From contig DALZEF010000006.1 of NCBI GenBank assembly GCA_031979385.1, positions 34,014 to 98,013 on the forward strand: DNA of 64,000 nt, read 5' to 3'. This document shows positions 3,410 through 41,162 of the stretch, piece after piece. Below the pieces are notes generated by a model that was not told where the DNA came from, did not search any database, and saw only the letters and a list, made by a program, of their open reading frames with translations. The stretch is from Timonella sp. (GTDB taxonomy: Bacteria > Actinomycetota > Actinomycetes > Actinomycetales > Cellulomonadaceae). The position numbers and the translations under genes were made by a program. Numbering within the stretch: position 1 is the stretch's first letter; every line of letters begins with the position of its first letter.

Positions 3410-4840
3410 TCAGCCGAGGGACCAGCGCGCCCCGGAGGCGGAGTCCTCGACTACGATTCCGGCGTTCGCGAGGATGTCGCGGATGGCATCGGCGGTGGCG
3501 AAGTCGCGGTCCTTGCGGGCCTGCGCGCGGTTTTCGATGTGCGCGGTCACAAGTACATCGAGGGCTTTGCGTGCCTTGTCGTCTCCGCTGGACTGCTGCC
3601 AGGATGCTGGGTCGAGGCCGAACACGTCAAGCATTGCGCGGAACACGAGGAGGTGCTCCCGCACAGCGTCTAGGTCACCGGAAGCAAGTGCGGAGTTACC
3701 TGCTTTAAGGTGCTCGTGCACGGAGGCCAGCCCGACCGACACGTTGAGGTCGTCGTTCATTGCGTCAATGAAAGTCTGCGGCAGGGATGCCTGCGCAACC
3801 TCATCAGCAGGGATCTCCCCAACCTTTTCGGTTGCCCGAGCGTAGAACCCCTCGAAACGCTCCCAAGCAGCCACGGCTTCCTCAAGCGTTCCCACTGGGG
3901 TTTCGTCACTGGCAGTGGTCCATTCGAGCATAGACCGATAGTGCACGGTCGCCAGCGCGTAACGCAGTGCTACGGCAGGCGCGTGTTTGAGTACCTCGCT
4001 CACAAGCAGCCCGTTGCCGAGTGACTTGGACATCTTGGTTCCACCCTGGGTCACCCAGGCGGAGTGCATCCAGTAGTTTGCGAAATCGTAGCCCGCTGCC
4101 TTTGACTGCGCCTGTTCGTTTTCGTGGTGCGGGAAGCGCAGGTCGAGGCCGCCGCCGTGGATGTCGAAGGCCTCGCCGAGGTAGCGCTTGGCCATCGCGG
4201 AGCATTCGAGGTGCCAGCCTGGACGTCCTGGACCATATGGGGTGTTCCAGCGCGCGGTTTCAGGCTCGCCGACCTTTGCGGCCTTCCATAGCGCGAAGTC
4301 TCGGGCATCCCGCTTGAGGGTTTCCTCGTCCAAGTCCTCGCTGGGGAGTGCGTCCTCGATCTGCTGGTTGGTAAGTTGCCCGTACGCATCCCACGAGCGG
4401 GTATCGAAGTACACGTTGCCCTCGCCCGCCTGGTAGGCGTGCCCGCGCTCAACCAGGCGGTCCATGAGTTCGATCATGTCGGTCATGTGGCCGGTTGCGC
4501 GTGGTTCGTAGGTGGGCAGCAGATTACCCAGCGCGTCGTAGGCGTCGGTGAACTTGCGTTCGTGCAGGGCAGCCCAGGCCCACCATGGCTGATCTGCGGC
4601 TTCGGACTTTGCGAGGATCTTGTCGTCGATGTCCGTGACGTTGCGAATGTAGGTGACGTTCAGGCCGGTGCGACGCAGCCAGCGCACGAGCACGTCGAAC
4701 GCAACGGCAGAGCGCATGTGTCCGATGTGGGGTGCTGCTTGAACCGTCGCTCCACACACGTACATGCCAACCTGTCCGGGTACGCGGGGTTGGAAGTCGC
4801 GCACTTGGCGCGTTGCAGTGTCAAAAAGCCGTAAAGTCAC
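3410..4840 (-). CDS. cysS: cysteine--tRNA ligase
   Basis: Class I HIGH motif (PHIGHMRS) and KMSKS motif (TKMSKSLGN). The length is 476 aa and the start is GTG. Confidence 0.95.
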
Positions 4841-5082
4841 CAGATAAGTCTACCTGTTTCGGCGCGTTTACACGGTTTCGTGAGGGGTATCATGGGCGCC
4901 GACCGCGCCGGTTTCGTCACAGTGCTCACTTTTTCGTACATTGCGTTCTGGCAGCGTTTCGCTCCGCGAAACCACTGCACTACTTTGTCAGCAACCGTGG
5001 ACTGTTGGCAGATTTCCGACGAGACCCCACTCTCCCCCGCATCTCACGTCCTCAGAGTGGCCGGGTTGGTTAAGTACTCCCA

Positions 5083-5153
5083 CCGATGTTGCGGCCCAGC
5101 CGGCACTGTCACGGTGAAAACCCACAACAGTGCCGAAACAACCGCAACATCGG
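5083..5153 (-). other. nested inverted repeat (possible factor-independent terminator or boundary element)
   Basis: The outer arms are 12 bp (CCGATGTTGCGG at 5083-5094 and CCGCAACATCGG at 5142-5153). The inner arms are 8 bp (GGCACTGT at 5102-5109 and ACAGTGCC at 5127-5134). No U-tract follows on the minus strand. Confidence 0.4.
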
Positions 5154-5158
5154 CTTCT

Positions 5159-5187
5159 GGTTAGTAACACATTCAGGTTAGTAACAC
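5159..5187. repeat. tandem direct repeat GGTTAGTAACAC x2, 5 bp apart
   Basis: Exact 12-mers lie at 5159-5170 and 5176-5187. They straddle the stop codons of the last gene of the AT-richer operon. Confidence 0.9.
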
Positions 5188-5502
5188 TCGGGAAGGCAGA
5201 CCGGTGGGTCCTGCGCGTACTGCTCGATCCACGCCGGTTCCTCCGTGGTCGTGAGCGTATACCCCGACCACTGCGCCAATACTCGATCTACCGAGGGACC
5301 ACGCACTGGCGCTTTGGGCGGGGAAGATAAACAGGTTGTCTTCCCGCGCCTCGATCACTCTCTGCAGTGCGTCTTTCGTGTCCCGCCAATCTAGGTAATA
5401 CGGGTGGTCCTCCTCGGTCGGTGCCGGAGTACATCCAGTTACGAAGACGCTAAGAACCAGTGCACCCACGGCATGAAAGACAACCGCTCGCCGTCTATCC
5501 AT
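5173..5502 (-). CDS. small putative lipoprotein, possibly frameshifted near its 3-prime end
   Basis: An internal ATG at 5502 gives MDRRRAVVFHAVGALVLSVFVTGC, which is a signal peptide plus lipobox Cys. The tail of this frame looks non-coding, while a neighbouring frame (5178-5290) looks coding (see findings). Confidence 0.45.
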   Translation of the reverse strand: MDRRRAVVFHAVGALVLSVFVTGCTPAPTEEDHPYYLDWRDTKDALQRVIEAREDNLFIFPAQSASAWSLGRSSIGAVVGVYAHDHGGTGVDRAVRAGPTGLPSRVLLT

Positions 5503-5563
5503 CAGCGCACGCTCCAAATGAGTTCCTAGAGTGTTCAAATCCATCAACACCCTTCTTCATGGC

Positions 5564-5836
5564 TTAAATGCGGTAAGACCATTCTCGGCAAACCGTAACA
5601 AGACCTGCTGACCGTACACTGCTGCCGTCATCCCCATCCGTTATCCGCGCTGTCTGCGCTACTATTTTGAACTCACGAGAATCAGATTCTGACGGGGATA
5701 CTATGACCGGAGTTGTTGCCGATGGGAGGAACCACTGATCCTGTGCACTAAATTGACCGCTAGGGAACTGCTGTTCTAGCAGGATCAGCACGAAGAAACT
5801 AAGAAGTACGGCGAAAACGGTACACTCTCGCAGCAC
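5564..5836 (-). CDS. small hypothetical membrane-anchored protein
   Basis: 90 codons with a GTG start 13 nt after the permease stop. There is one N-terminal hydrophobic helix (VFAVLLSFFVLILL). I recognise no family. Confidence 0.45.
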   Translation of the reverse strand: MLRECTVFAVLLSFFVLILLEQQFPSGQFSAQDQWFLPSATTPVIVSPSESDSREFKIVAQTARITDGDDGSSVRSAGLVTVCREWSYRI

Positions 5837-5849
5837 AATTCCGCCCTCA

Positions 5850-7058
5850 CTACTGAAACTGCCGCTCGTGGTTCAAAAGCGTCAGTACATCAAGTCTGAC
5901 GTGCGTGCGAATCAACCATCTCCGAATCCCCGCGTAAAGGAGGCCGCCACCTACCACTAGCAGTACCAGAGTCACAGCGAAACGTTGAGCCGCAACCGCA
6001 GGTGGGAATAACACCAAGGCCGCGACGAACGTTGTAGCCCCTGAAACCAGAACAGGATAGGTAACCGTCCGAAGCAGCACACGTGCGTACTGCTCAATGA
6101 TGGTCGTCTCAGCCAGTTTCCAGTGTTTGAGGATCCCGATGTCACGCCGGCTAAGCGCCAGATACGATCGCCATGTCACGATAAAGAACACGATTGCAGC
6201 AAGGGCAGTGAACCCGACAACGGCGAACGACAGATTTCGCTGTAGTTGCAGCCCAGATTCAATCGAGTCGAAGGCCCGCAGCGCGAACCCCGAACTATAT
6301 CCCTTGGAATCAAGCGCGGCTGCTACGTCTCGAACGCGATGGTAGTCCGATACTTGCACAAGGGCCCCAGAGTAGACAGGGATCATCTCAATCCGCCCGG
6401 CATCGTACTCTTGGATTATGGCAGCTCGGTTCGCACCGAACATCTGCTCAGCGATACTCCAATAGGTATCAGTTGTGACGTATCCTTCTAAGCCCGGCGC
6501 ACCAGAGGTGAGGTAGTCGAACCTTACTGGATCGACCTCGGAAGAAAACGCGATGTGCGTAGTCGCCACGTCAGTACTTACAACCCCAGATTCGTCCACT
6601 TCAGAAAGTATTGGGATCTGAATCTCGCGCTCTTCGCTCCCAAGATCAAGACCGTACGCCACGCCATCTTGCATGGCCTCTACACCGATGACTTCTGCAA
6701 GTGTGGGGTCGATTCCGTAGAGTGTAACGGACTCACCCTCAGCCAGTTCAAACCCGGTTCCAAAGCCATACAATGCGGAAACTGTAGCCTCAGCAACACC
6801 CGTTGAAATCTCTGAGATGCTCGCCAGATCGGCCGTTGTCAATGGAGCCACATACGATCCATCTTCACGGCCTAAGACATCTACCAGATGAAGATTGCTG
6901 TTGTGTTCAAACTCTGCACGCCGCAGGTCACTTTGCTGCGCGAAGAACAGTACGACCACAATGTTCACTATGAGGATCAGAGAAAGCAGTATGGTGGATA
7001 ACCTGATTTGCTTTCTAGATCGGGTCGTAACGGCAGATAAAACTACTTGATTGTTCAT
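5850..7058 (-). CDS. ABC transporter permease, FtsX/MacB type (4 TM with a large extracytoplasmic loop)
   Basis: TM1 is LSTILLSLILIVNIVVVLFF, followed by a soluble loop of about 250 aa and three C-terminal TMs. An FtsX-like motif (RRDIGILKHWKL) follows TM2. The start codon abuts the ATPase stop (TAAATG at 7056-7061). Confidence 0.75.
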   Translation of the reverse strand: MNNQVVLSAVTTRSRKQIRLSTILLSLILIVNIVVVLFFAQQSDLRRAEFEHNSNLHLVDVLGREDGSYVAPLTTADLASISEISTGVAEATVSALYGFGTGFELAEGESVTLYGIDPTLAEVIGVEAMQDGVAYGLDLGSEEREIQIPILSEVDESGVVSTDVATTHIAFSSEVDPVRFDYLTSGAPGLEGYVTTDTYWSIAEQMFGANRAAIIQEYDAGRIEMIPVYSGALVQVSDYHRVRDVAAALDSKGYSSGFALRAFDSIESGLQLQRNLSFAVVGFTALAAIVFFIVTWRSYLALSRRDIGILKHWKLAETTIIEQYARVLLRTVTYPVLVSGATTFVAALVLFPPAVAAQRFAVTLVLLVVGGGLLYAGIRRWLIRTHVRLDVLTLLNHERQFQ

Positions 7059-7700
7059 TTAAACTACCTCGGTAAGTGCGCTGAGGTTGCCTTCTGCCTG
7101 CAGCCGCAGTATGACTGCATCGGCTGGGGCATTCAGCAGGTTTGGCTCGTGCGTGACAATGATGATGGTTCTACCTTCTCGCACCCTCCATAGGCTGTCA
7201 TAGACACTGATGGCGTTGTCGGGGTCCAAACTTCCTACGGGTTCGTCAAGGAGCAATACACTTGGCGAGCCAATGAGCGCTCCAGCAATTTCGACTCGCC
7301 TCCTTTCACCACCGGAGAGGTCGCGGACCATTGATTGCGCAAGGTGTGGCAGTCCCACCTGCTCCAAAACATGCTCAACTTGGGCTACTGCATCCACGTC
7401 CTGCACGCAGGCTCGATCTTGGTTCGCGACCACGCGAATCATCAGGTTTTGGGTGACGGTTAGTTCAGAGAACAGCAACTCAGTTTGAAAGAGATATTCA
7501 ATCTCACCATCGTGGGAAACTACGCCGGAGTCGGGTTTTACGTACCCAGCGCACAGGTTCAACAGAGTGGTCTTTCCAACGCCGCTCGCGCCCTGCACGA
7601 AGTACACGGAGTCTGATTCGAACCTAAAGCTTGCGTTGTTGAAGATGGACCTCGCACCGAGTTTCAGCGAGATGTTGTGGAGTTCAATCATTGAGTTCAC
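7059..7700 (-). CDS. ABC transporter ATP-binding protein (stand-alone ATPase of about 213 aa)
   Basis: Walker A is GASGVGKTT, the signature is LSGGERRR, Walker B is LLLDEP and the H-loop is IVTHE. Confidence 0.9.
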   Translation of the reverse strand: MNSMIELHNISLKLGARSIFNNASFRFESDSVYFVQGASGVGKTTLLNLCAGYVKPDSGVVSHDGEIEYLFQTELLFSELTVTQNLMIRVVANQDRACVQDVDAVAQVEHVLEQVGLPHLAQSMVRDLSGGERRRVEIAGALIGSPSVLLLDEPVGSLDPDNAISVYDSLWRVREGRTIIIVTHEPNLLNAPADAVILRLQAEGNLSALTEVV

Positions 7701-8607
7701 CTAACGGGTAGGTCTTTACGCCTTGTGCGGTATAGATTTCTAGGTTCTCGCCGTTGACTTCGAAACCGAGAATACTTCCGGTTTCGATGGCTCGGGTTTC
7801 TCCAGAGCCGACCTGGGTTGCGTGTGCTGTGAGCGAGTTATCTTGAAGTTCTAGCCAGAGCACGAGTTCATCGTTGATCACGTCGCAGGATAGGGCGCAC
7901 ATGCTGGCTGGATATTGCTCATCGAAAGCCCCGTCAGCAACCACCTCGCCTCCAAGAACTTGCAGGGCTGCGGAGTCTAACCCTTCACGTACTACGGTTA
8001 GTGCACTAAGTTGATCGATTGGAGCTGAATACAGTGAAAAATCGTCTGTTTCGGCGATGTACCTAGTCACATACAAGGCGCCATTCTCTAAGACAGAATC
8101 AACCACAACGAAGGGGAGCTCACTCACTTCCCGCACGTCATAACTGGCAGTGAGCTCGTAGACGGCAGAGCGTGCGGGGAGTCCCTCGGCGTCAAATTCC
8201 TGCCCAACGAACTGCTCTTTGCCCTGCTCAGAACCCAGCGGGATCATGAGTCGACCTGGTGTTTCGGCAACTATTCGCGCCTGCCCCCGCTCCAGTTTGA
8301 AGATCTTGTAGTCGAGGTTGACTGAGTCTCCGTAGGAGAAATAAGTGTGCGGGATCGTGCGGTCAAGGTACGCAAAGTAGTGGTCACTGTCTTTACTCGT
8401 TCGACTAGTCCCATCTGTGGGACTGTAGTAGACGACCTTTGAAGAGAATCGATCAATAACTACGAGTTCATCTTGTTCAATGTTGTCGAGTGTCGCGTTC
8501 ACGTAGGGAACTTGTCCGGCATCGTCGCTGGCAGAATTTCCTTTGGTAGGCGTACAGGCAACTACGGAGAGCACGATGGCCAACACCGCGATATATGGAC
8601 GTTTCAC
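7684..8607 (-). CDS. hypothetical lipoprotein (307 aa)
   Basis: The GTG start gives MKRPYIAVLAIVLSVVAC, a signal peptide plus lipobox. The 3-prime end overlaps the ATPase start by 17 nt. I recognise no family. Confidence 0.6.
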   Translation of the reverse strand: MKRPYIAVLAIVLSVVACTPTKGNSASDDAGQVPYVNATLDNIEQDELVVIDRFSSKVVYYSPTDGTSRTSKDSDHYFAYLDRTIPHTYFSYGDSVNLDYKIFKLERGQARIVAETPGRLMIPLGSEQGKEQFVGQEFDAEGLPARSAVYELTASYDVREVSELPFVVVDSVLENGALYVTRYIAETDDFSLYSAPIDQLSALTVVREGLDSAALQVLGGEVVADGAFDEQYPASMCALSCDVINDELVLWLELQDNSLTAHATQVGSGETRAIETGSILGFEVNGENLEIYTAQGVKTYPLGELND

Positions 8608-8650
8608 TTGGCTTCCTTGTCACTAGATAACAAGTTAAATTCGGGGAGGT

Positions 8651-8701
8651 AGGGTAGGAAGTCCGTCCACGATATTGCGCGTGGCACGTTCTTCCTACCC
8701 T
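8651..8701 (-). other. intra-operon hairpin between the secreted-protein gene and the downstream genes
   Basis: The 11-bp stem pairs AGGGTAGGAAG (8651-8661) with CTTCCTACCCT (8691-8701). Inside the loop, CCACG (8667-8671) pairs with CGTGG (8680-8684). Confidence 0.5.
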
Positions 8702-8713
8702 TCGCGGATTGGC

Positions 8714-9223
8714 CTACGCGGCGGCTGTAATCTGCCAGTTTCGGTTGTCGCCCTTGAACTTCACATACGCCGTGTTTTTCAAGAAGATCGTCCCAAATCG
8801 GTAGTCGGCTCTCGGTGCCACAACCATGTTTGAACCGTACGACGCAGTCCTAGCGCCATTCGTGTTCGACCAATACTTAGTCTCTTGCACTGTGCTCCAC
8901 GTGCTTCCGCCACCAACGGTCACACCGTTTCCGCTAGCGCCTAGGGAGAAAGATGCAGAATTACGCATGCTCGCTCCTCCCGTCCAAGTGGTTTTGATCT
9001 GCGCTACGGATTGCTTACCGCCGATTTTCGCTTTCACCGCATAGTTCCATTTGCGCGTACCGCCCTTGTCTGTGCCTCCGTCGTACCAGACATCAGCCGT
9101 GAGTACACCGTACGGCGTCGCCTTCGTTTGCGAGTCCTGCCATGCACTCGCCGGGACAGTGAAGCCCAAGGAGAGTGCAGCGGCAGTAATGACAACAACA
9201 CTGCTTTTTAGCAGCCTGTGCAT
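8714..9223 (-). CDS. secreted hypothetical protein (169-aa precursor, Gly/Ser/Thr/Trp/Asn-rich, predicted beta-rich)
   Basis: Sec signal peptide MHRLLKSSVVVITAAALSLGFTVPASA with an AXA cleavage site. A GAAAGGA Shine-Dalgarno lies 6 nt upstream of the ATG. It is the first gene of the operon. Confidence 0.7.
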   Translation of the reverse strand: MHRLLKSSVVVITAAALSLGFTVPASAWQDSQTKATPYGVLTADVWYDGGTDKGGTRKWNYAVKAKIGGKQSVAQIKTTWTGGASMRNSASFSLGASGNGVTVGGGSTWSTVQETKYWSNTNGARTASYGSNMVVAPRADYRFGTIFLKNTAYVKFKGDNRNWQITAAA

Positions 9224-9261
9224 GAGTGGTCCTTTCGGTTTATCCTGCGTGAATGAAGATT

Positions 9262-9273
9262 GGTTCCGGAACC
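9262..9273. promoter_or_regulatory. perfect 12-bp palindrome GGTTCCGGAACC in the leader or promoter of the secreted-protein gene
   Basis: Read directly from the sequence. It overlaps the expected transcription start of the candidate promoter below. Confidence 0.4.
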
Positions 9274-9280
9274 GAAAGTG

Positions 9281-9310
9281 ACATTAGTGCTCGTCAGAGC
9301 GCCCCGTCAA
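9281..9310 (-). promoter_or_regulatory. candidate sigma-A type promoter for the AT-richer operon
   Basis: On the minus strand there is TTGACG (9310-9305), an 18-nt spacer and TAATGT (9286-9281), about 60 nt upstream of the ATG at 9223. Confidence 0.35.
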
Positions 9311-9597
9311 TGATGTGAATGAATATCTGACTGGAGCAACCCACCTCTGCGTCCGCGATCTGAGATCGTTGCAATGCGAATGATTATGACTAAGTTGACG
9401 CCACATAGACCCGCACACGCCACAGCAGGCGCAAAAGTCCCAAATTATGGCAAAGAGGATCTGACAAGGGCATCAACAAAGTCCCGCCTGAGCACAGAAA
9501 AACACCCCTTGACCTCAACAAACTTTCCACGTGGATACCATCCGCATAGTGAGAGTCGAGCAGTCAAGGGGCTGGGGTGAGTCGGGTTGGGTGGGCG

Positions 9598-9674
9598 CAC
9601 GCCGAACTCAGCCTTTACCCCGAGTTCAGCCCGGAGCAGGCTGAGTTCGTGGGGTTTTGGCTGAGTTCGACGTG
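9598..9674. repeat. palindromic intergenic element, copy A (CGAACTCAGCC / GGCTGAGTTCG family)
   Basis: The 16-bp outer stem pairs 9598-9613 with 9659-9674, with one position that is a G-U pair on the minus-strand RNA. An extra GGCTGAGTTCG lies at 9639-9649. The element sits 21 nt downstream of the bglX stop. Confidence 0.7.
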
Positions 9675-9694
9675 CGGGAGCGAGCGGTGTCGGT

Positions 9695-15514: not shown

Positions 15515-16540
15515 ATGGCTATTGTGAACACCACTGCCCGAGTAACGATGGCCGACGTAGCCCAGGCCGCCGGCGTATCCGTTGCCACCGTCTCCAAAGT
15601 CGTCAACAACAAGGACGGCATCTCCCCTGCACGCACCGCCCACGTTCGCAGAATTATCGACGAGATGGGTTACGCAGCATCGCTCGGCGCGCAATCCCTA
15701 CGGTCCCGCAGCACTGGAGTACTCGGGATGCTCGTGGCAGAGTTCGAACCGTTCTCGACCGAACTCCTCAAAGGCGCCTCACGTGCGATCAAGGCAACCG
15801 AATACGAACTACTCGCCTACTCGGGGCGCAGCCACTCCGCACCAGAAGACGGCTGGGAACGCCGCCACCTAGCACGCCTATCAGGTGCTCTCATTGACGG
15901 CGCAGTGATCGTCACCCCATCCGGGACAGAAACGATATTCCCCGTACCCGTAGTCGCGATCGATCCACACCTCGATACCGATGCGCTGCCAACAGTGCGG
16001 TGCAACAGCTACGACGGCGCATTCCAGGCAACCAGTTACCTCGCCGATCTCGGACACACCAAGATCGGCTACCTCGGGGGCCGCAGCGACCTGAAATCCT
16101 CTCAGGAACGCGAGCTAGGCTACCGCGACGCACTGCTAAACGCTGGCATCGCAGCCAACGATGACTACATCGGCCAGGGCGACTACCTCCCCGAAGCCTC
16201 ACAGGCACCGGCCCGAGAAATTCTGTCCCGCAAGGACCGCCCAACCGCGATCTTCGCAGCAAACGACCTGTCCGCAATCGAGGTCATCAAGGTCGCGGAA
16301 GAATTAGGGCTGAACGTCCCGCGCGATCTGTCCGTGATCGGGTTCGACAACGTTCCCGAGGCCGCACTATTCCGTATTCCGCTCACCACGATGGCCCAGC
16401 CACTCGGCGAGATGGGTGAGATCGCGTTGAACATGCTCGCGAAGATCATCTCCGGCGAAGACGTCGAAACCCAGGCGCTCCTACCCGTCGAGTTAGTGGT
16501 GCGCGACTCGTGCGCGCCACCACTTGCCTCCGAAAACTGA
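15515..16540 (+). CDS. LacI family transcriptional regulator
   Basis: N-terminal helix-turn-helix (VTMADVAQAAGVSVATVSKVVNN) plus a periplasmic-binding-protein-like effector domain. Confidence 0.9.
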   Translation: MAIVNTTARVTMADVAQAAGVSVATVSKVVNNKDGISPARTAHVRRIIDEMGYAASLGAQSLRSRSTGVLGMLVAEFEPFSTELLKGASRAIKATEYELLAYSGRSHSAPEDGWERRHLARLSGALIDGAVIVTPSGTETIFPVPVVAIDPHLDTDALPTVRCNSYDGAFQATSYLADLGHTKIGYLGGRSDLKSSQERELGYRDALLNAGIAANDDYIGQGDYLPEASQAPAREILSRKDRPTAIFAANDLSAIEVIKVAEELGLNVPRDLSVIGFDNVPEAALFRIPLTTMAQPLGEMGEIALNMLAKIISGEDVETQALLPVELVVRDSCAPPLASEN

Positions 16541-16619
16541 AAGTGACCATGACCTGCGGTCACATTCGACCGCCCCTAGTCACACGACCTGTCATCTGCG
16601 GTTCTCAGGTAGGCGCCCA

Positions 16620-16841
16620 CTACCCATGACAAGAAAACTCAAGAGGGGTGCCCGTTTCGTTTGAAACCGAAACACTGGAAGGAAGCCAATAGACAGGGTT
16701 CATGAACGTCACCTTCCCATCGCCCTTCAGAGCAAGCACATCCGTGGATTCATCCAGGCTTGAGATCTTCGGCTCGCCGCCAGAGCATCCAACAACGAAC
16801 AACATCAAGACTGAAACTGTAAAGACACGGAAAGAGTTCAT
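16620..16841 (-). CDS. small hypothetical lipoprotein
   Basis: The internal ATG at 16841 gives MNSFRVFTVSVLMLFVVGC, a signal peptide plus lipobox. The segment is AT-richer than its surroundings and I recognise no family. Confidence 0.45.
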   Translation of the reverse strand: MNSFRVFTVSVLMLFVVGCSGGEPKISSLDESTDVLALKGDGKVTFMNPVYWLPSSVSVSNETGTPLEFSCHG

Positions 16842-17027
16842 GCGTAGCCGACCGCCCCTTCCATCTTTCGCTTGAGCACTTCTTTCAGCAAAAGAAAAAT
16901 CCATATACAGCACTTGAGAAGTCATTCACAGTAATACTCACCCTTTTTCAGAGCGCTTACGCACAGCCCGTGGGAGTTCGTAGATCAACAGGTATCCTCC
17001 TGAGAAAAACCAAGAGAGTGCGCCCAG

Positions 17028-17096
17028 CGAACTCAACCAAAAGTGCACGAACTCGACCGGAAAGCGGTTGAGCTCGTGCACTTTTGGTTGAGTTCG
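17028..17096. repeat. palindromic intergenic element, copy B (CGAACTCAACC / GGTTGAGTTCG family)
   Basis: The 32-position stem has one mismatch and one wobble, with a loop of 3-5 nt. It lies 71 nt downstream of the stop of the PLP-enzyme gene. Its first 30 or so nt are similar to copy A. Confidence 0.8.
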
Positions 17097-17166
17097 ATTC
17101 GGGAGGTGGCGTGGAGCGGCAAACACGAGGCAGGTAGACGGATGTGTGTGCTTCAGCCCAACGCAA

Positions 17167-18345
17167 CTACCCGAAATTCTGGCCTTCGCCCCGGTAGGTG
17201 AGCGACTCGTCGACAATGTGGGAGCCATCGAGCAGATAGGTGGTATTGAAGCGTTCCATCTGTTCACCGGCCTTGGCGTGGCGGAACCACACGCGATCTC
17301 CCACCGCAGGGCGTCTACCTCCACGCGTCACGCGCAATGGCGTCTGCACCTCCCCCACCCCTTCGGCGCCGATGAATCTAAACCCCGACTCCACCGCCAC
17401 CGGATGGCGCGAAATACGCGGAGGACCGGATGCAACGTAGCCGCCCGCGAAGGCGGTGAAGAATCCCGCACCGGGATGACGTACAACGTCGAGTCCAAAG
17501 TAAGCGGAAGGGCGCAGGCCGAGACCACGATATCCGTCAAAGAGCGCAGGCGCATAGAACCCAGAACCGGCTGTTACCTCGGTGACTTCACCGGCCCGTT
17601 CGTAGTCACCAACTGAACCCGTGCCACCGGCATTCACCACACGCACATCGTCCACGCGCAACTCAAGTGCAGCCACGATCTCAGCCCGACGCTCTGCGAG
17701 TTCCACGCGTGAAATCTTCTTCATGGTGCGCACGGCCCACGAGTTGTCCGGCATCCCGGCGATCTGGGCATCGTAGAACATGGCCCCAACCACACGTACG
17801 TGCTCATACGAAGCCACGGCACCGAGCAAGGAAACCGCGTCCTGCACGGTATGCACAGGCGAACGGCGAACGCCCAGGTGCAGTGGGATTCCCAGGTTCC
17901 GTCCGATCCGCAACGATGCATCCACGTCGAACGCCACCTGCACGGGAGACACCGGACGTGCGGCCGAGATCAGTTCCACGTGTTCAACGCAGTCCACGAT
18001 CAGCACGATCTCCGCGAGCGCCCGCTCATCCTGGGCGAGAGCAGCCAAGGCGCTGCGGTCAACGGTCGGATAGGCAACGAGGATATCCGTGTATCCGTGT
18101 CCTACCAGCCATAGAGCTTCACGCAATGAGTAGCACATGAGACCTTGATAACCGGGAGTCTCCAGAGCCCGGTCGATAAGGGTGCGGTTTCGCAGGGATT
18201 TTGTGGCAACGCGGATGGGCTTTCCGTGGGTCCGGGTTGCCATGTGTCGGGCGTTCGCATCAAATGCAGCAAGATCGAGCACTGAGATCGGTGCCGGTAA
18301 GTGCGTTGTCGCTGCACTGAGGGTCTGCGAGAGGTGTGGTGCCAT
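17167..18345 (-). CDS. PLP-dependent alanine-racemase-fold enzyme (amino-acid deaminase/aldolase, DSD1-like)
   Basis: The N-terminal TIM-barrel region has a candidate PLP-binding lysine in IRVATKSLR. The length and C-terminal beta domain fit the D-serine dehydratase / D-threonine aldolase-like family. I chose the start at the ATG at 18345. Confidence 0.6.
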   Translation of the reverse strand: MAPHLSQTLSAATTHLPAPISVLDLAAFDANARHMATRTHGKPIRVATKSLRNRTLIDRALETPGYQGLMCYSLREALWLVGHGYTDILVAYPTVDRSALAALAQDERALAEIVLIVDCVEHVELISAARPVSPVQVAFDVDASLRIGRNLGIPLHLGVRRSPVHTVQDAVSLLGAVASYEHVRVVGAMFYDAQIAGMPDNSWAVRTMKKISRVELAERRAEIVAALELRVDDVRVVNAGGTGSVGDYERAGEVTEVTAGSGFYAPALFDGYRGLGLRPSAYFGLDVVRHPGAGFFTAFAGGYVASGPPRISRHPVAVESGFRFIGAEGVGEVQTPLRVTRGGRRPAVGDRVWFRHAKAGEQMERFNTTYLLDGSHIVDESLTYRGEGQNFG

Positions 18346-18440: not shown

Positions 18441-19856
18441 ATGGGAAGCTTCCGATTCCGCAGCGCTGCAGAACCCTCACACCCGCGTGCACGCGACGAC
18501 CGCTGGACTAACTCGTGGACTAATTGGGCAGGTAATGTGACCAGCCGTCCCCACGCGACGGAGACTCCCCGGGACCCTATGGCGTTGACGCGGATCGTTG
18601 ACCGGGCGGTTGCCTCCGGAGACACGATTCGGGTGGTGGGAGCAGGGCATTCGTTCACGCCAGCCGCCGCGACGAACGGCGTCCAAGTGAGTTTGGATCG
18701 GCTCGATCAGTTGGAGATAATCGCCCCGATCCCAGGCACAGATGGCGAATGCCTCGTGACGGTTGGCGCAGGAATCCGCCTTCATGCTCTGAACGAGTTG
18801 TTGGCTGAGCACGGTCTTGCAATGCCCAATCTCGGGGATATCGACCAGCAGTCGCTCGCCGGTGCACTGTCCACGGGCACCCACGGTACAGGGGCCGCAC
18901 TGCCTGGTCTGGCGGCGCAGGTGCGAGGGATGCGTATCCTGCTGGCAAGCGGCAGCGTTATCGAGGTATCCCAAGACCAGCACCCGGAGGTTTTTCAGGC
19001 AGCCCGCGTGAGCGTGGGTGCGCTCGGCATTCTCCTTGCGGTGACGATCCGCTGCGTGCCAGCCTTCCTGCTGCATGCTCGCGAGACCCCGATGCAGTTC
19101 GACGAGGTCATGGAGGGCCTCGACGAGTTCGCGGACACCAATGATCACTTCGAGTTCTACTGGTTCCCCGGCACTCATGGCACGCTCACCAAGTTCAACA
19201 ACCGAGTTCCTGAAGGAACTCCCACCACGGTGGATTCCTTGAAGCCTGCTGCGGCCGCCGCTTATTCGGCTCGTTCCTGGTGGGACGATGAACTGCTCTC
19301 GAATGGGCTGTTCCAGTTCACCAATTCCCTGTCGGCTCGGGTGCCGCAACTCACCGGTCCACTCAATGTTGTCGCGTCCAAGGCGCTGTCCCCTCGCGAG
19401 TATGTTGCCCCGTCGCATGAGGTGTTCGTGTCTCCACGGCGCGTCCGCTTCATCGAAATGGAGTACGCGGTTCCGAGGACTGCACTCAGCGATGTACTCC
19501 AGGAACTCACTACGGTGGCCAACCGCCGCGATCTGGCCATCCAGTTCCCTGTTGAGGTGCGCTTCGCTGCGGCTGACGATGTGTGGCTCTCCACGGCCCA
19601 CGAACGCGACAGTGCGTACATCGCCGTGCACCAGTATCAACACAGCCCATACCGCGAATACTTCGATGCGGCTGAGGCGATCTTCCGTGCGGCCGGGGGC
19701 CGCCCGCACTGGGGCAAGATGCACTCACTGACGCGCACGGAACTGACCGATCTCTATCCACGGTTCGAGGCGTTCTGCACGATCCGTGAGAAGCTCGACC
19801 CACGCGGCCTGTTCGCTAACTTCTACACCAACCAGGTGTTTGGCAAACTCACCTGA
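18441..19856 (+). CDS. FAD-linked oxidoreductase, D-arabinono-1,4-lactone / L-gulonolactone oxidase family
   Basis: WTNWAGNV, VVGAGHSFT (PCMH-type FAD-binding domain) and the C-terminal ALO-domain motif GGRPHWGK. I chose the start at the ATG at 18441. Confidence 0.8.
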   Translation: MGSFRFRSAAEPSHPRARDDRWTNSWTNWAGNVTSRPHATETPRDPMALTRIVDRAVASGDTIRVVGAGHSFTPAAATNGVQVSLDRLDQLEIIAPIPGTDGECLVTVGAGIRLHALNELLAEHGLAMPNLGDIDQQSLAGALSTGTHGTGAALPGLAAQVRGMRILLASGSVIEVSQDQHPEVFQAARVSVGALGILLAVTIRCVPAFLLHARETPMQFDEVMEGLDEFADTNDHFEFYWFPGTHGTLTKFNNRVPEGTPTTVDSLKPAAAAAYSARSWWDDELLSNGLFQFTNSLSARVPQLTGPLNVVASKALSPREYVAPSHEVFVSPRRVRFIEMEYAVPRTALSDVLQELTTVANRRDLAIQFPVEVRFAAADDVWLSTAHERDSAYIAVHQYQHSPYREYFDAAEAIFRAAGGRPHWGKMHSLTRTELTDLYPRFEAFCTIREKLDPRGLFANFYTNQVFGKLT

Positions 19857-19889
19857 GTCGCCTACACCACCGCCACGAAAGCACCACCC

Positions 19890-20450
19890 ATGCCACGAGT
19901 CGGGCTCACCCGCGAGAAACTCATCGCCACGGCAACAGCGATCGCCGATGAACACGGCCTCGCTGCCGTGACCATGCATGCCCTCGCACGCCAATACGGG
20001 GTGGCGGCTCCCAGCATGTACAAGCACGTGCGTAATCTCGAGGACCTGCACAGCGCCATCGCTGCGGAAGGCTTGGTCCTGTTCGAACGGTCGCTGCGCG
20101 CCTCGGACGGTTCGGTGACAGGGCTTGCCCGCGCGTATCGCGCATTCGCGAGCAATCACCCCGGCCTGTACGACGCGTCTCAAAGCCCTGCACTCACCGC
20201 GCAGGGTCAGGGTCAAGAAATCTCCCGACGAGTCGTCTCGTTCATCGCGTCGGTCCTGCCCGAGAATTTGAGTCCCGACGATACGGTCGATTCAGTCCGC
20301 ATCATCCGTTCCGCTCTGCACGGGTTTGTCACGCTTGAGCGTGACGGAGGTTTTGGTCAGTCTGCAAGCGCGGACCGGACGTTTGAGGAACTGTGCACGG
20401 TGCTCACCATGATCGTTTCCATGCGGGCTGTCGCCAAGCGACAAACCTAA
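19890..20450 (+). CDS. TetR/AcrR family transcriptional regulator
   Basis: N-terminal helix-turn-helix (LAAVTMHALARQYGVAAPSMYKHV). The length is 186 aa. Confidence 0.8.
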   Translation: MPRVGLTREKLIATATAIADEHGLAAVTMHALARQYGVAAPSMYKHVRNLEDLHSAIAAEGLVLFERSLRASDGSVTGLARAYRAFASNHPGLYDASQSPALTAQGQGQEISRRVVSFIASVLPENLSPDDTVDSVRIIRSALHGFVTLERDGGFGQSASADRTFEELCTVLTMIVSMRAVAKRQT

Positions 20451-20458
20451 GTTTGAGG

Positions 20459-20947
20459 TCAACGCTCAACAGGTATCACCAAGGCCGTCGCAATCGCGGC
20501 AAGCCCTTCGCCCCGACCAGCGAACCCAAGAGTATCCGTGGTTGTTGCCGAGATACGTACCGTGGCTCCGGCCGCCTGTGACATTCGCTCCTGCATGAGT
20601 TCCCGGTGCGGACCGACCTTGGGCCGGTTACCAATCGCCTGAACTGCCACGTTCCCGATCTCAAAACCGGCGGCACGGACTCGACGGGCTGCCTCGGCGA
20701 GCAAAACTGAACCAGCAGCGCCAACCCACTGCGGTTCACTCGTGCCAAAGTTCGAGCCCAAGTCCCCCAAGCCAGCAGCAGAAAACAGAGCATCTGCGGC
20801 AGCGTGGGCAATCACATCAGCATCCGAGTGTCCCTCCAGTGGACGTTCGTTGGGGAAGAGTACTCCCCCGAGCCACATCTCGCGTGTTGACCCTTCCTCG
20901 GCAAAAGCATGTACATCCGAGCCGATGCCCACCAGCGGCAGTTTCAT
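20459..20947 (-). CDS. ispF: 2-C-methyl-D-erythritol 2,4-cyclodiphosphate synthase
   Basis: GIGSDVHAF and GHSDADV motifs. It overlaps ispD by 4 nt. Confidence 0.95.
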
Positions 20948-21765
20948 ACGTTTTCCTCCCTAAGCTCCGTGCCTGCTAGGTGTAGCGCTTGCGCGTACAG
21001 CACCCGAGCAACAGTTAAATCAGTGGGAGTCGTAATCTTCAACGCCAACTCATCACCGCTCACGCAGTCCACTTCGTGACCAGCCCACTGCGCAATCGTT
21101 GAGTCATCCGTCGCAGCCGTTGTCTCATCCAAGCCGCGATCAGCAAAATCAACGTGCGCCTGCCACAATACCTGCCACGGGAAACCCTGCGGGGTCTGAA
21201 CACTACGCATCACTGAGCGATCAGCCGACCCCACGATCCGTTCCCGCCCGGTCGCTTCCGGTTCAGCATTGACATCCACCAGCTTTAACGTGTCCGACAC
21301 CGGCAGTGCGGGAATCACCGCAGCGCTACCCGCAACGACCCCACCAACAACACGATCCATCATCGCCGGACCGGCCAGCGCACGCGCGGCATCATGCACA
21401 AGAACAGTATCGTTCGGTTCGACCCCGAATCCCGCTGCTTCCAAGGCTCGCAGCCCTGCAAACACCGAAGCCTGCCGGGTACCCGCTCCAGGGACCACCT
21501 CAACCGGAACAGCCACGCCCAACTGTGCGACCGTTGCCGAAAAAACATCCACTTGGTCTGCAGGAGCGGTCACCACAACGTGCGCAATCCCAGAGACACC
21601 AGCCACCTGACGTAAGGCAACAACAAAAAGCGAAGAATCGTCGCCAATCAATCCATCGGTAGACAGGGGAACGAGCGCCTTCGGTGCGCCATACCCAAGC
21701 CGCGAACCCGAACCCGCCGCAGTGATCACCACGCCAACCCGTGCGGCAGAAACCAAACTAGTCAC
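20944..21765 (-). CDS. ispD: 2-C-methyl-D-erythritol 4-phosphate cytidylyltransferase
   Basis: AAGSGSRLG motif. Its position between carD and ispF is conserved. The start is GTG. Confidence 0.9.
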
Positions 21766-21885: not shown

Positions 21886-25136
<3,251 letters not shown>

Positions 25137-40832: not shown

Positions 40833-41162
40833 TCAGTGTGCCGCGTCGTATGCGTCGCGGATTTCCTGTGGAACGCGTCCGCGCACATTAACCTCGTAGC
40901 CATTTGCACGAGCCCAGTCGCGAACCTCGGTAGCTGAAGGGCCACCAACGGTTGCGGCACGGCCCTTGCGCGCACCACGGGTGCCACGACCGACCTTACG
41001 GGATACCGCTACGTAATCAGCAAGAGCTCCACGAAGCTTCTCAGCGTTGCTAGTGTTCAGGTCGATCTCGTAGGAAACACCGTCAAGGCCGAACTGAACA
41101 GTCTCGTCTGCGGAACCACCATTGAGATCATCCACAAGGATGACTTGAACCTTCTGTGCCAT
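40833..41162 (-). CDS. lsr2: Lsr2 family nucleoid-associated protein (xenogeneic silencer)
   Basis: MAQKVQVILVDDL...DGVSYEIDL plus the C-terminal AT-hook-like motif (VRDWARANGYEVNVRGRVPQE). It is adjacent to lysS, as in mycobacteria. Confidence 0.95.
   Translation of the reverse strand: MAQKVQVILVDDLNGGSADETVQFGLDGVSYEIDLNTSNAEKLRGALADYVAVSRKVGRGTRGARKGRAATVGGPSATEVRDWARANGYEVNVRGRVPQEIRDAYDAAH

Follow-up and report, generated by a model that had tools for sequence, protein, structure and literature searches.

What is the function of the AT-rich block of genes that lies between a GH3 gene and cysS in a Timonella genome, and how did it come to be there? We addressed this question in a window of 64,000 nt (the whole stretch of DNA analyzed here: assembly GCA_031979385.1, contig DALZEF010000006.1, positions 34,014 to 98,013; coordinates below are those of the window unless a locus is named). 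The conserved unit at this locus is a cassette of four minus-strand genes (5850-9310), encoding a small secreted beta-rich protein (hereafter the beta-protein), a lipoprotein, an ATP-binding cassette (ABC) ATPase and a permease (Table 1). We read it, and give this reading an even chance, as a bacteriocin-like, pore-forming effector with self-protection by lipoprotein and ABC transporter. Such a toxin and immunity function is the best fit because the cassette joins a secreted cationic hairpin protein, an acidic lipoprotein and an outside-working pump with island-like spread and a site of exchange.

A preliminary description of the window, made from the sequence alone, had proposed a six-gene, AT-rich operon for a toxin or bacteriocin with an export and immunity module. 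All six open reading frames (ORFs) are present on the minus strand with the coordinates and junctions it reported, including the TAA-ATG junction of the ATPase and permease genes (7056-7061), 13-nt gaps (5837-5849 and 5551-5563) and a 17-nt overlap of the lipoprotein and ATPase genes; a start of the ATPase at ATG 7691 (N-terminus MIELHNIS), which agrees better with the orthologues than GTG 7700, would shorten this overlap to 8 nt. The block is indeed AT-richer than its flanks, with a GC content of 0.534 vs 0.598 for the whole window, and it is the lowest-GC 4.2-kb stretch among the 64 kb (minimum 0.530; mean 0.597, sd 0.019); GC at third codon positions is 0.47-0.64 in its genes and 0.66-0.79 in flanking genes. 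The unit nevertheless comprises four genes and not six, because ORF5 and ORF6, the two 'small envelope proteins' of the preliminary description, have no counterparts in related cassettes and are remnants of other genes. A tblastn search of related loci with the six window proteins recovered the first four in all of them and ORF5 and ORF6 in none.

Wherever the available DNA suffices, the gene order in other genomes is beta-protein, a protein of about 300 aa, an ATPase of about 200 aa and a permease of about 400 aa. This order was found in Oerskovia turbata, an uncultured Cellulomonadaceae genome, a Propioniciclava metagenome-assembled genome, a JGI metagenome contig and further metagenome contigs. 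Four distant members, here given by locus number, hold it as far as their contigs extend: L016-18, an actinobacterial cassette between tsaD and groES; L019; L020, with 33% GC, where the contig stops within the fourth gene; and L015, where it stops after the second. The cassette recurs across Actinomycetota and on low-GC contigs that are probably of Firmicutes type; a metagenome scan added only two further short loci. In Oerskovia its GC content is about 0.66, vs 0.72-0.75 in the surroundings, and in L019 (6911-11099) the cassette and lgt (prolipoprotein diacylglyceryl transferase) together form a 0.43-GC island in a genome of about 0.6 GC. A two-component system of OmpR type and a gene for a small, secreted SH3_3 protein directly precede the low-GC (0.33) cassette of L015 (642-3252). 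This AT-richer, island-like character, together with the absence of the cassette from the corresponding site of a sister species (below), supports foreign, horizontally acquired DNA, in keeping with the suspicion voiced in the preliminary description. As had also been reported there, no regulator was found in the block and no integrase around it, nor was a tRNA or a flanking direct repeat found there. Cassette copies were likewise missing from phage, viral and plasmid records (IMG/VR scan; tblastn against phage and plasmid records), so that nothing points to carriage by a phage or plasmid.

The sister species is Populibacterium corticicola (GCA_042683685.1, contig JBHUOP010000006.1; locus L021), whose CysS falls into the same cluster of at least 90% identity as that of the window; this places the window's host in the Jonesiaceae (Micrococcales), which are monoderm. 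The two loci are collinear, with 93% identity from LacI to GH3 and 90% from cysS on, and the cassette is absent from the P. corticicola GH3-cysS site. The stretch that matches window positions 5173-9590 is a different AT-rich island (L021 6787-9678, GC 0.46-0.54) encoding a 494-aa secreted protein, a 232-aa protein with two transmembrane (TM) segments (8319-9014) and a 202-aa lipoprotein (9070-9675). The 494-aa alternative payload has no match in Pfam, NCBIfam or the PDB, and the island is possibly another effector and immunity module. About 460 nt are common to both loci at 80% identity (window 9590-9127), comprising the entire upstream region and the codons of the signal peptide and of ~15 residues at the mature N-terminus, past which homology ends abruptly. 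From these limits it follows that the window-specific DNA spans about 5791-9126, that is, the mature beta-protein, the lipoprotein, the ATPase and the permease. ORF5 aligns with the C-terminal region of the 232-aa product (82% identity over 60 aa) and begins with 15 new codons, and ORF6 matches the 202-aa lipoprotein at 91% (aa 37-80) and 73% (aa 76-124) identity. The preliminary description had been unable to place any of the four non-ABC proteins; two of them can now be traced to these genes, and the beta-protein and the lipoprotein remain without a family. On either side of the P. corticicola island lies a direct repeat of 111-135 nt (L021 6304-6426 and 9640-9774; 88% identical), with a hairpin of 32-nt arms and the lipoprotein gene's 3' end in each copy. 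In the window, a single copy of this element (5062-5166) is the only repeat signal around the block.

By this comparison, the GH3-cysS interval is a polymorphic site, constant in its promoter, signal peptide and mature N-terminus and variable in its payload and downstream genes. The remnants ORF5 and ORF6 speak for replacement of a P. corticicola-like module by the cassette, and the shared N-terminus AWQxSxxKxxPY, typical of the beta-protein family, for the opposite direction; repeated exchange would be the simplest view. In its shared promoter, signal peptide and ~15 mature residues, its unrelated C-terminal payloads and different downstream genes, its downstream remnants of a displaced module and its island-flanking repeats, the site resembles polymorphic toxin or bacteriocin loci. 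Unlike them, it shares at the N-terminus a Sec signal and a short stretch instead of a large delivery domain, and no type V, VI or VII secretion system or Rhs apparatus is present.

The beta-protein is predicted to be Sec-secreted, as the preliminary description had it. Its signal peptide (aa 1-27) would be cleaved between ASA and WQD, an AxA site kept in 21 relatives, to give a mature protein of 142 residues, 15.2 kDa and pI 10.0, with 18 aromatic residues and no Cys. We compared it in a narrow alignment of 21 sequences and a wide one of 62 diverse relatives, among which pI exceeds 8 in 55. A word-indexed search of 5.8 billion proteins returned 22 relatives, and an exhaustive profile search enlarged the family to 89 cluster representatives, among them low-GC sequences, probably from Firmicutes, and a subfamily with lipoprotein signal peptides. 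This family appears to be undescribed: the window protein has no Pfam or NCBIfam match at E ≤ 1, none of the 62 relatives matches any Pfam family, pore-former families included, and neither the narrow nor the wide profile gave a meaningful match among PDB sequences, Lcn972 (2LGN) and MspA being absent from both results.

The beta-rich character ascribed to the protein earlier is borne out by its AlphaFold2 (AF2) model, which is all-beta (mean predicted local distance difference test, pLDDT, 79.5) and consists of a beta-sandwich with a very long protruding hairpin (strands 73-97 and 100-121), the tip of which is of low confidence, with a pLDDT of 53-66 in the distal half. Residues 84-97 and 100-112 follow a strict alternation of hydrophobic and polar residues, which is kept in both alignments and is seen there independently of the model. 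The hydrophobic positions are A, L/M, A, F/L/I, L/V/I, A/V/I in the one strand and V, V/A in the other, with S, S, S, S, G, S as small polar partners. Such alternating strands resemble a membrane-inserting beta-hairpin, which is suggestive and not proof. In a Foldseek search, MspA (1UUN) ranked first (E 4e-5, TM-score 0.27), followed by arrestin/ApaG-like sandwiches and by pore-state NetF, NetB, VCC, CytK, Epx4 and beta-toxin; the first five of these pore-formers matched at E 3e-4 to 6e-3 with a root-mean-square deviation above 20 Å. All of these fold matches are weak (TM-score about 0.16-0.39), and viral structures gave no meaningful match. The beta-protein is thus similar to MspA and to beta-pore-forming toxins (beta-PFTs) of the haemolysin/aerolysin type in its sandwich body, its single long hairpin and the alternation of small polar and hydrophobic residues, and differs from them in the low TM-scores, in lacking a Pfam match to any pore-former family or to PF09203, in its size (15 kDa vs 30-kDa haemolysins) and, as regards MspA, in belonging to hosts presumed to have no mycomembrane. 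We know of no beta-PFT that is paired with a MacB-like ABC transporter and a lipoprotein.

The lipoprotein is encoded by the second gene in every cassette, and all orthologues have a lipobox except that of L015, which has an N-terminal membrane anchor. Identity across orthologues is only 20-29%, and the CxxxC motif is invariant in an eight-sequence alignment of the actinobacterial-type loci. Its mature part is strongly acidic, with a pI of 4.2 and a net charge of -30 in the window and, in most loci, a pI of about 4.1 and a net charge of -26 to -40. No sequence match was found in Pfam, NCBIfam or the PDB, also when the PDB was searched with a profile. A hint of WD40 in one orthologue (E 0.078) is not significant, and a VirB7 match (E 0.085) in the PDB profile searches with cassette proteins is attributed to chance.

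The ATPase has intact Walker A (GASGVGKT), signature (LSGGERRR), Walker B (LLLDEP) and H-loop (VTHE) motifs and matches PF00005 at E 4e-27. Its best NCBIfam model is that of the lactococcin-972-group ABC proteins, TIGR03608 (128 bits vs a cut-off of 254.85), which ranks first in four of the six cassette ATPases and third in the other two (105-128 bits), and the second best model for the window protein is FtsE (121.7 bits vs a cut-off of 264.85). A PDB sequence search was uninformative, being dominated by proteins with multiple nucleotide-binding domains (NBDs), and scans of the six block proteins with PADLOC, Pfam and NCBIfam yielded generic ABC matches only.

The permease has the order TM1, an acidic outside domain of ~205 aa, TM2, coupling helix, TM3 and TM4, so that the stand-alone ATPase and the four-TM permease with a large outside loop are much as first described. 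In the AF2 model (pLDDT 83.5), helices span residues 3-51, 260-302, 304-312, 317-350 and 353-387, and the outside domain (residues 54-258, pI 4.05) is of mixed alpha/beta structure. The motif WRSYLRLSRRDIGILKHW after TM2 (coupling helix SRRDIGILKHW) and a C-terminal REFQ are conserved among the aligned permeases. We place the protein in the type VII class because all of its 40 best PDB Foldseek matches are type VII ABC permeases, LolE at E 2.9e-11 (TM-score 0.57), LolE/LolC with TM-scores up to 0.58, and further the pneumococcal Spr0694-0695, MacB, BceB, YtrF, YbbP and HrtB; FtsX structures matched only at E ≥ 0.02. At the sequence level, the window permease has no Pfam or NCBIfam match (PF02687, PF12704 and TIGR01654 included), its orthologues give sub-threshold Pfam matches at the expected positions (FtsX E 0.006 in L019 and L012; MacB_PCD E 0.002 in L004), only eight relatives were found among the 5.8 billion proteins even with a profile, and the family profile finds no PDB sequence. 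Judged by its model, the permease is a very divergent MacB/LolCE-like type VII mechanotransmission ABC protein and not part of an FtsEX system. The likeness to MacB seen in the preliminary description is upheld by the fold.

As in other type VII systems (MacAB-TolC, LolCDE, Spr0693-0695, YtrEF, BceAB, HrtBA, YbbAP-TesA), the permease has four TM segments, an outside domain between TM1 and TM2, a coupling helix and a separate NBD, and an outside partner protein is encoded alongside. The cassette differs from these systems in a permease below Pfam detection and in partners that are an undescribed beta-protein and a lipoprotein instead of MacA, LolA, EnvC or TesA. It is further removed from the BceAB module, in which the permease has 10 TM segments vs four here; BceB is matched through its MacB-like half (TM-score 0.30-0.33), and no BceRS-type two-component system is present in the window block, one adjoining the cassette only in L015.

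Across 28 pairs of cassettes, mean pairwise identity is 52% for the beta-protein, 43% for the ATPase, 35% for the permease and 29% for the lipoprotein, and the small secreted beta-protein is therefore the most constrained component. The identities of the four proteins rise and fall together over these pairs, a correlated divergence which implies that the cassette is inherited as a unit. Between near-identical strains, the beta-protein gene has one synonymous and no non-synonymous substitution and the lipoprotein gene none and 1-3, respectively, counts that are too small for use.

Some of these related loci have features of their own. In L016 (11453-12373), and also in L017 and L018, the permease gene is followed by one for an extra 306-aa, proline-rich, Cys-rich protein with a single TM segment and no Pfam match. 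L010 and L011 (25-1581) carry an identical cassette; what sets them apart is a DDE_Tnp_1 transposase whose insertion has truncated the His_Phos_1 gene upstream.

The preliminary description had credited the block with its own promoter; we read a putative one at the position given in Table 1, and both hexamers are kept in P. corticicola (TTGACG / TAACGT), whereas a generic sigma-70 scan called no promoter on the right strand. The palindromic block further upstream is likely to be an operator or other regulator-binding site, judging by its near-identity in the two species. The internal hairpin of the preliminary description was recovered as a stem-loop directly 3' of the first-gene stop, where stem-loops of unrelated sequence also occur in L005, L006, L010, L014 and L007; those of L005, L010 and L007 are more stable than shuffled sequences (z -3.3 to -4.1), and those of L006 and L014 are not (z -0.6 and -1.3). 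The element is a candidate partial terminator or mRNA stabilizer, and its position agrees with a first-gene transcript that is held in excess.

Table 1. Coordinates of the cassette, its expression signals and the neighboring features in the window (dG, folding free energy)
Feature	Position	Strand	Description
Type VII (MacB/LolCE-like) ABC permease gene	5850-7058	-	402 aa; class predicted by AF2 and Foldseek
ABC ATPase gene	7059-7700	-	213 aa from GTG 7700 or 210 aa from ATG 7691
Lipoprotein gene	7684-8607	-	307 aa; lipobox VVAC, Cys18; CxxxC C237/C241
Secreted beta-protein gene	8714-9223	-	169 aa; from ORF and alignment of 21 relatives
Ser/Gly/Ala-rich amphipathic beta-hairpin, putatively membrane-inserting	8888-8974	-	codons 84-112 of the beta-protein; W109/Y111 near base
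Intercistronic stem-loop	8651-8701	-	arms 8651-8666/8686-8701; dG -42.8 kcal/mol, z -4.5
Candidate promoter	9281-9310	-	TTGACG (9310-9305), 18 nt, TAATGT (9286-9281); ~55 nt upstream of ATG; read from sequence
Conserved upstream block	9505-9590	-	~86 nt, near-identical in window and L021; perfect palindrome TCCACGTGGA (9526-9535)
ORF5	5564-5836	-	90 aa; junction chimera, 3' remnant of the 232-aa two-TM gene; outside cassette
ORF6	5173-5550	-	125 aa; internally deleted copy of the 202-aa lipoprotein gene; outside cassette
Terminator-like hairpin	5062-5166	-	arms 5083-5109/5127-5153, within ~105-nt element; from inverted-repeat search
cysS	3410-4840
ispF (YgbB)	20459-20947		ispF/ispD together 20459-21765
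Lsr2 gene	40833-41162

The genes cysS, ispF and Lsr2 lie where the preliminary description had put them. A 16-nt tandem repeat, TTCTGGTTAGTAACAC / TTCAGGTTAGTAACAC, extends across the ORF6 stop (5155-5187). At the other end of the site, the GH3 gene is followed by a long hairpin (9596-9676, 26-nt arms), which is most likely its terminator, and P. corticicola has the ~105-nt repeat element there instead. The only match of an Rfam scan was sub-threshold and fell on this hairpin; it is a spurious resemblance to the plant microRNA MIR6459 (38 bits vs a gathering score of 100). Elsewhere in the window, GC content dips at 16500-17250 (0.52), over the small minus-strand ORFs 16620-16925 and 16938-17324 beside a LacI gene, and at 22500-23000 (0.54), and the minus-strand ORFs 18477-19724 (415 aa) and 19725-20216 (163 aa), between an alanine-racemase-like gene and ispF, have no Pfam match at E ≤ 1e-5.

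From the predicted folds, the distribution of charge, the amphipathic hairpin and the locus polymorphism we infer a toxic, pore-forming protein and a matching immunity system, which might work as follows. The secreted beta-protein would attach to the anionic envelope of Gram-positive competitors, oligomerize and insert its hairpins as a beta-barrel pore. On the producer surface, the acidic anchored lipoprotein could capture the cationic beta-protein, and cytoplasmic ATP hydrolysis by the ABC machine would move the acidic outside domain of the permease, pushing or extracting the beta-protein from the producer membrane. Immunity would then be achieved by expulsion, possibly with assisted release as well. 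The stem-loop after the first gene may keep the effector transcript above those of the protection genes, and the translationally coupled genes for lipoprotein, ATPase and permease would protect and serve the producer. At the GH3-cysS site, payload and downstream genes could be exchanged behind the constant promoter and signal peptide. A comparable logic is known from LanI and LanFEG (NisI/NisFEG), where a surface lipoprotein binds a cationic membrane-active agent and an ABC transporter expels it. The likeness is one of analogy only, as the components are not homologous to those of the cassette, LanFEG are ABC-2-type exporters and not MacB-like, and the agent is a small modified peptide. The toxin and export/immunity function suggested in the preliminary description thus remains the best reading, strengthened by the polymorphic locus, the charge pattern and the hairpin after the first gene, and is separated from the lactococcin-972 type to which it had been likened. 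A more specific version, which we advance tentatively and consider rather doubtful, is that the beta-protein founds a family of 15-kDa cationic beta-barrel pore-forming bacteriocins, lipidated in the lipobox subfamily, that a Lol/MacB-like ABC machine and an acidic lipoprotein extract from the producer, the module being exchangeable behind a shared promoter and signal peptide.

Several observations weigh against an effector with self-protection. The weak pore-former fold matches may reflect only the long hairpin, the distal half of which is of low confidence. Acidic extracytoplasmic proteins are common in Actinomycetota and two of the lipoprotein orthologues are not acidic, so that charge complementarity is weak evidence. 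A subfamily of beta-proteins carries a lipobox (GSGC, GIGC, GTAC), and in L019 lgt lies beside the cassette, whose beta-protein likewise has one (FVGSGC); a tethered protein would be odd for a diffusible toxin. Furthermore, the first two genes overlap by 4 nt in L016-18, which suggests equimolar partners and not an over-expressed toxin, and a secreted protein that is more conserved than the ATPase would also fit a structural partner of the pump.

These points lead to the strongest alternative, an envelope machine in which the beta-protein is a partner of the MacB-like pump, serving as oligomeric conduit or adaptor across the thick wall, substrate-binding module or sensor, and in which the four proteins together export or expel some compound, for example an antimicrobial peptide or a hydrophobic molecule such as a lipid. 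Type VII ABC transporters normally work with outside partners such as MacA, LolA, EnvC or TesA (PMC5985334, PMC12646458). Inheritance of the four genes as a unit with correlated divergence, beta-proteins that are lipoproteins tethered to the producer, translational coupling of the first two genes in L016-18, the position of the beta-protein as the most conserved part and the two-component system beside the L015 cassette, as in peptide-resistance modules, would all be consistent with such a machine. However, the lipid-facing hydrophobic face of the hairpin would be superfluous for a soluble conduit, and a swap site with an unrelated secreted protein in a sister species is typical of effector loci, not of pumps. 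Substrate-synthesis genes are also missing, the distribution is sparse and island-like, and the beta-protein gives no MacA-like adaptor fold or Pfam signal. We regard this alternative as unlikely.

A divergent member of the lactococcin-972 group, the comparison drawn in the preliminary description, would have a secreted protein that binds lipid II and blocks the septum without pores, with ABC-based immunity by target protection. The general layout is shared with the loci of lcn972, streptococcin B (scbABC) and mediterrocin (PMC11796350, PMC12345188), in which the gene of a Sec-dependent beta-sandwich protein precedes those of a membrane protein and a stand-alone ATPase presumed to confer immunity, and TIGR03608 is the nearest model in four of the six cassettes. 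In addition, the DUF1430 proteins of Lcn972 loci and FtsX-type domains belong to one Pfam clan (PMC6588880), and the highly conserved core of the Sec-dependent bacteriocin mediterrocin (PMC12345188) parallels the conservation of the cassette beta-protein. Membership is nevertheless improbable. Neither PF09683 nor TIGR01653 was found at E ≤ 1 in the 62 family members, 2LGN was not recovered from PDB sequences at E ≤ 10 by either beta-protein profile and lies outside the top 50 fold matches, and hhalign gave a probability of 0.9% against the Lcn972 sequence. The mature protein, with no sequence or profile similarity and a long amphipathic hairpin, is about twice as large (142 residues, not 66-89), and its membrane partner is a 402-aa, four-TM, MacB/LolCE-like protein with an outside domain instead of a ~650-aa, seven-TM DUF1430 protein, with no match to PF07242 or TIGR01654. 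The TIGR03608 scores reach half the cut-off, and the cassette has an extra, obligatory lipoprotein.

It is very improbable, and the presence/absence data already contradict it, that the locus only appears foreign and is in fact a housekeeping type VII system (FtsEX or lipoprotein release, homology to which would have refuted the preliminary description) or an MspA-type porin locus: although FtsE is the second-best ATPase model, LolE/LolC and MspA are the best fold matches of permease and secreted protein, every cassette has a lipoprotein and lgt adjoins that of L019, the cassette is missing at the same site in the sister species and AT-rich relative to its hosts, has only ~22 close beta-protein and 8 permease relatives among 5.8 billion proteins and no peptidoglycan hydrolase partner, falls short of the FtsE cut-off with FtsX structures beyond the E-value given above, and occurs in named hosts of the Micrococcales and Propionibacteriales and in other loci of 33% GC, none of them mycolic-acid-containing Mycobacteriales, so that an outer or mycolate membrane in which a Lol pathway or an MspA porin could operate is presumably lacking. 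The probability that remains falls to an explanation outside those considered here.

An effector with self-protection at this locus would be of a known kind, namely a Sec-dependent protein effector with ABC and lipoprotein protection. In the databases and literature that we searched, we found no account of the cassette itself, of its protein families, of a MacB-like machine with these partners or of payload exchange behind a fixed signal peptide. If the reading is correct, a new family would join the short list of Sec-dependent protein bacteriocins, and beta-barrel pore formation would extend to warfare of Gram-positive bacteria against other bacteria. Type VII ABC transporters would gain a new job, the clearing of a pore-forming protein from the producer membrane, and on the more specific version above the cassette would be the first system of this class to serve as an immunity and release device for a pore-former. 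The GH3-cysS site would illustrate clearly, for the Actinomycetota, how effector cassettes are exchanged while promoter and signal peptide stay fixed, and the strain pair, with the cassette in the window strain and another payload in P. corticicola, would offer a ready genetic test. Even if the beta-protein is not a toxin, the cassette represents an unstudied, phylum-crossing set of partners for a MacB-like pump.

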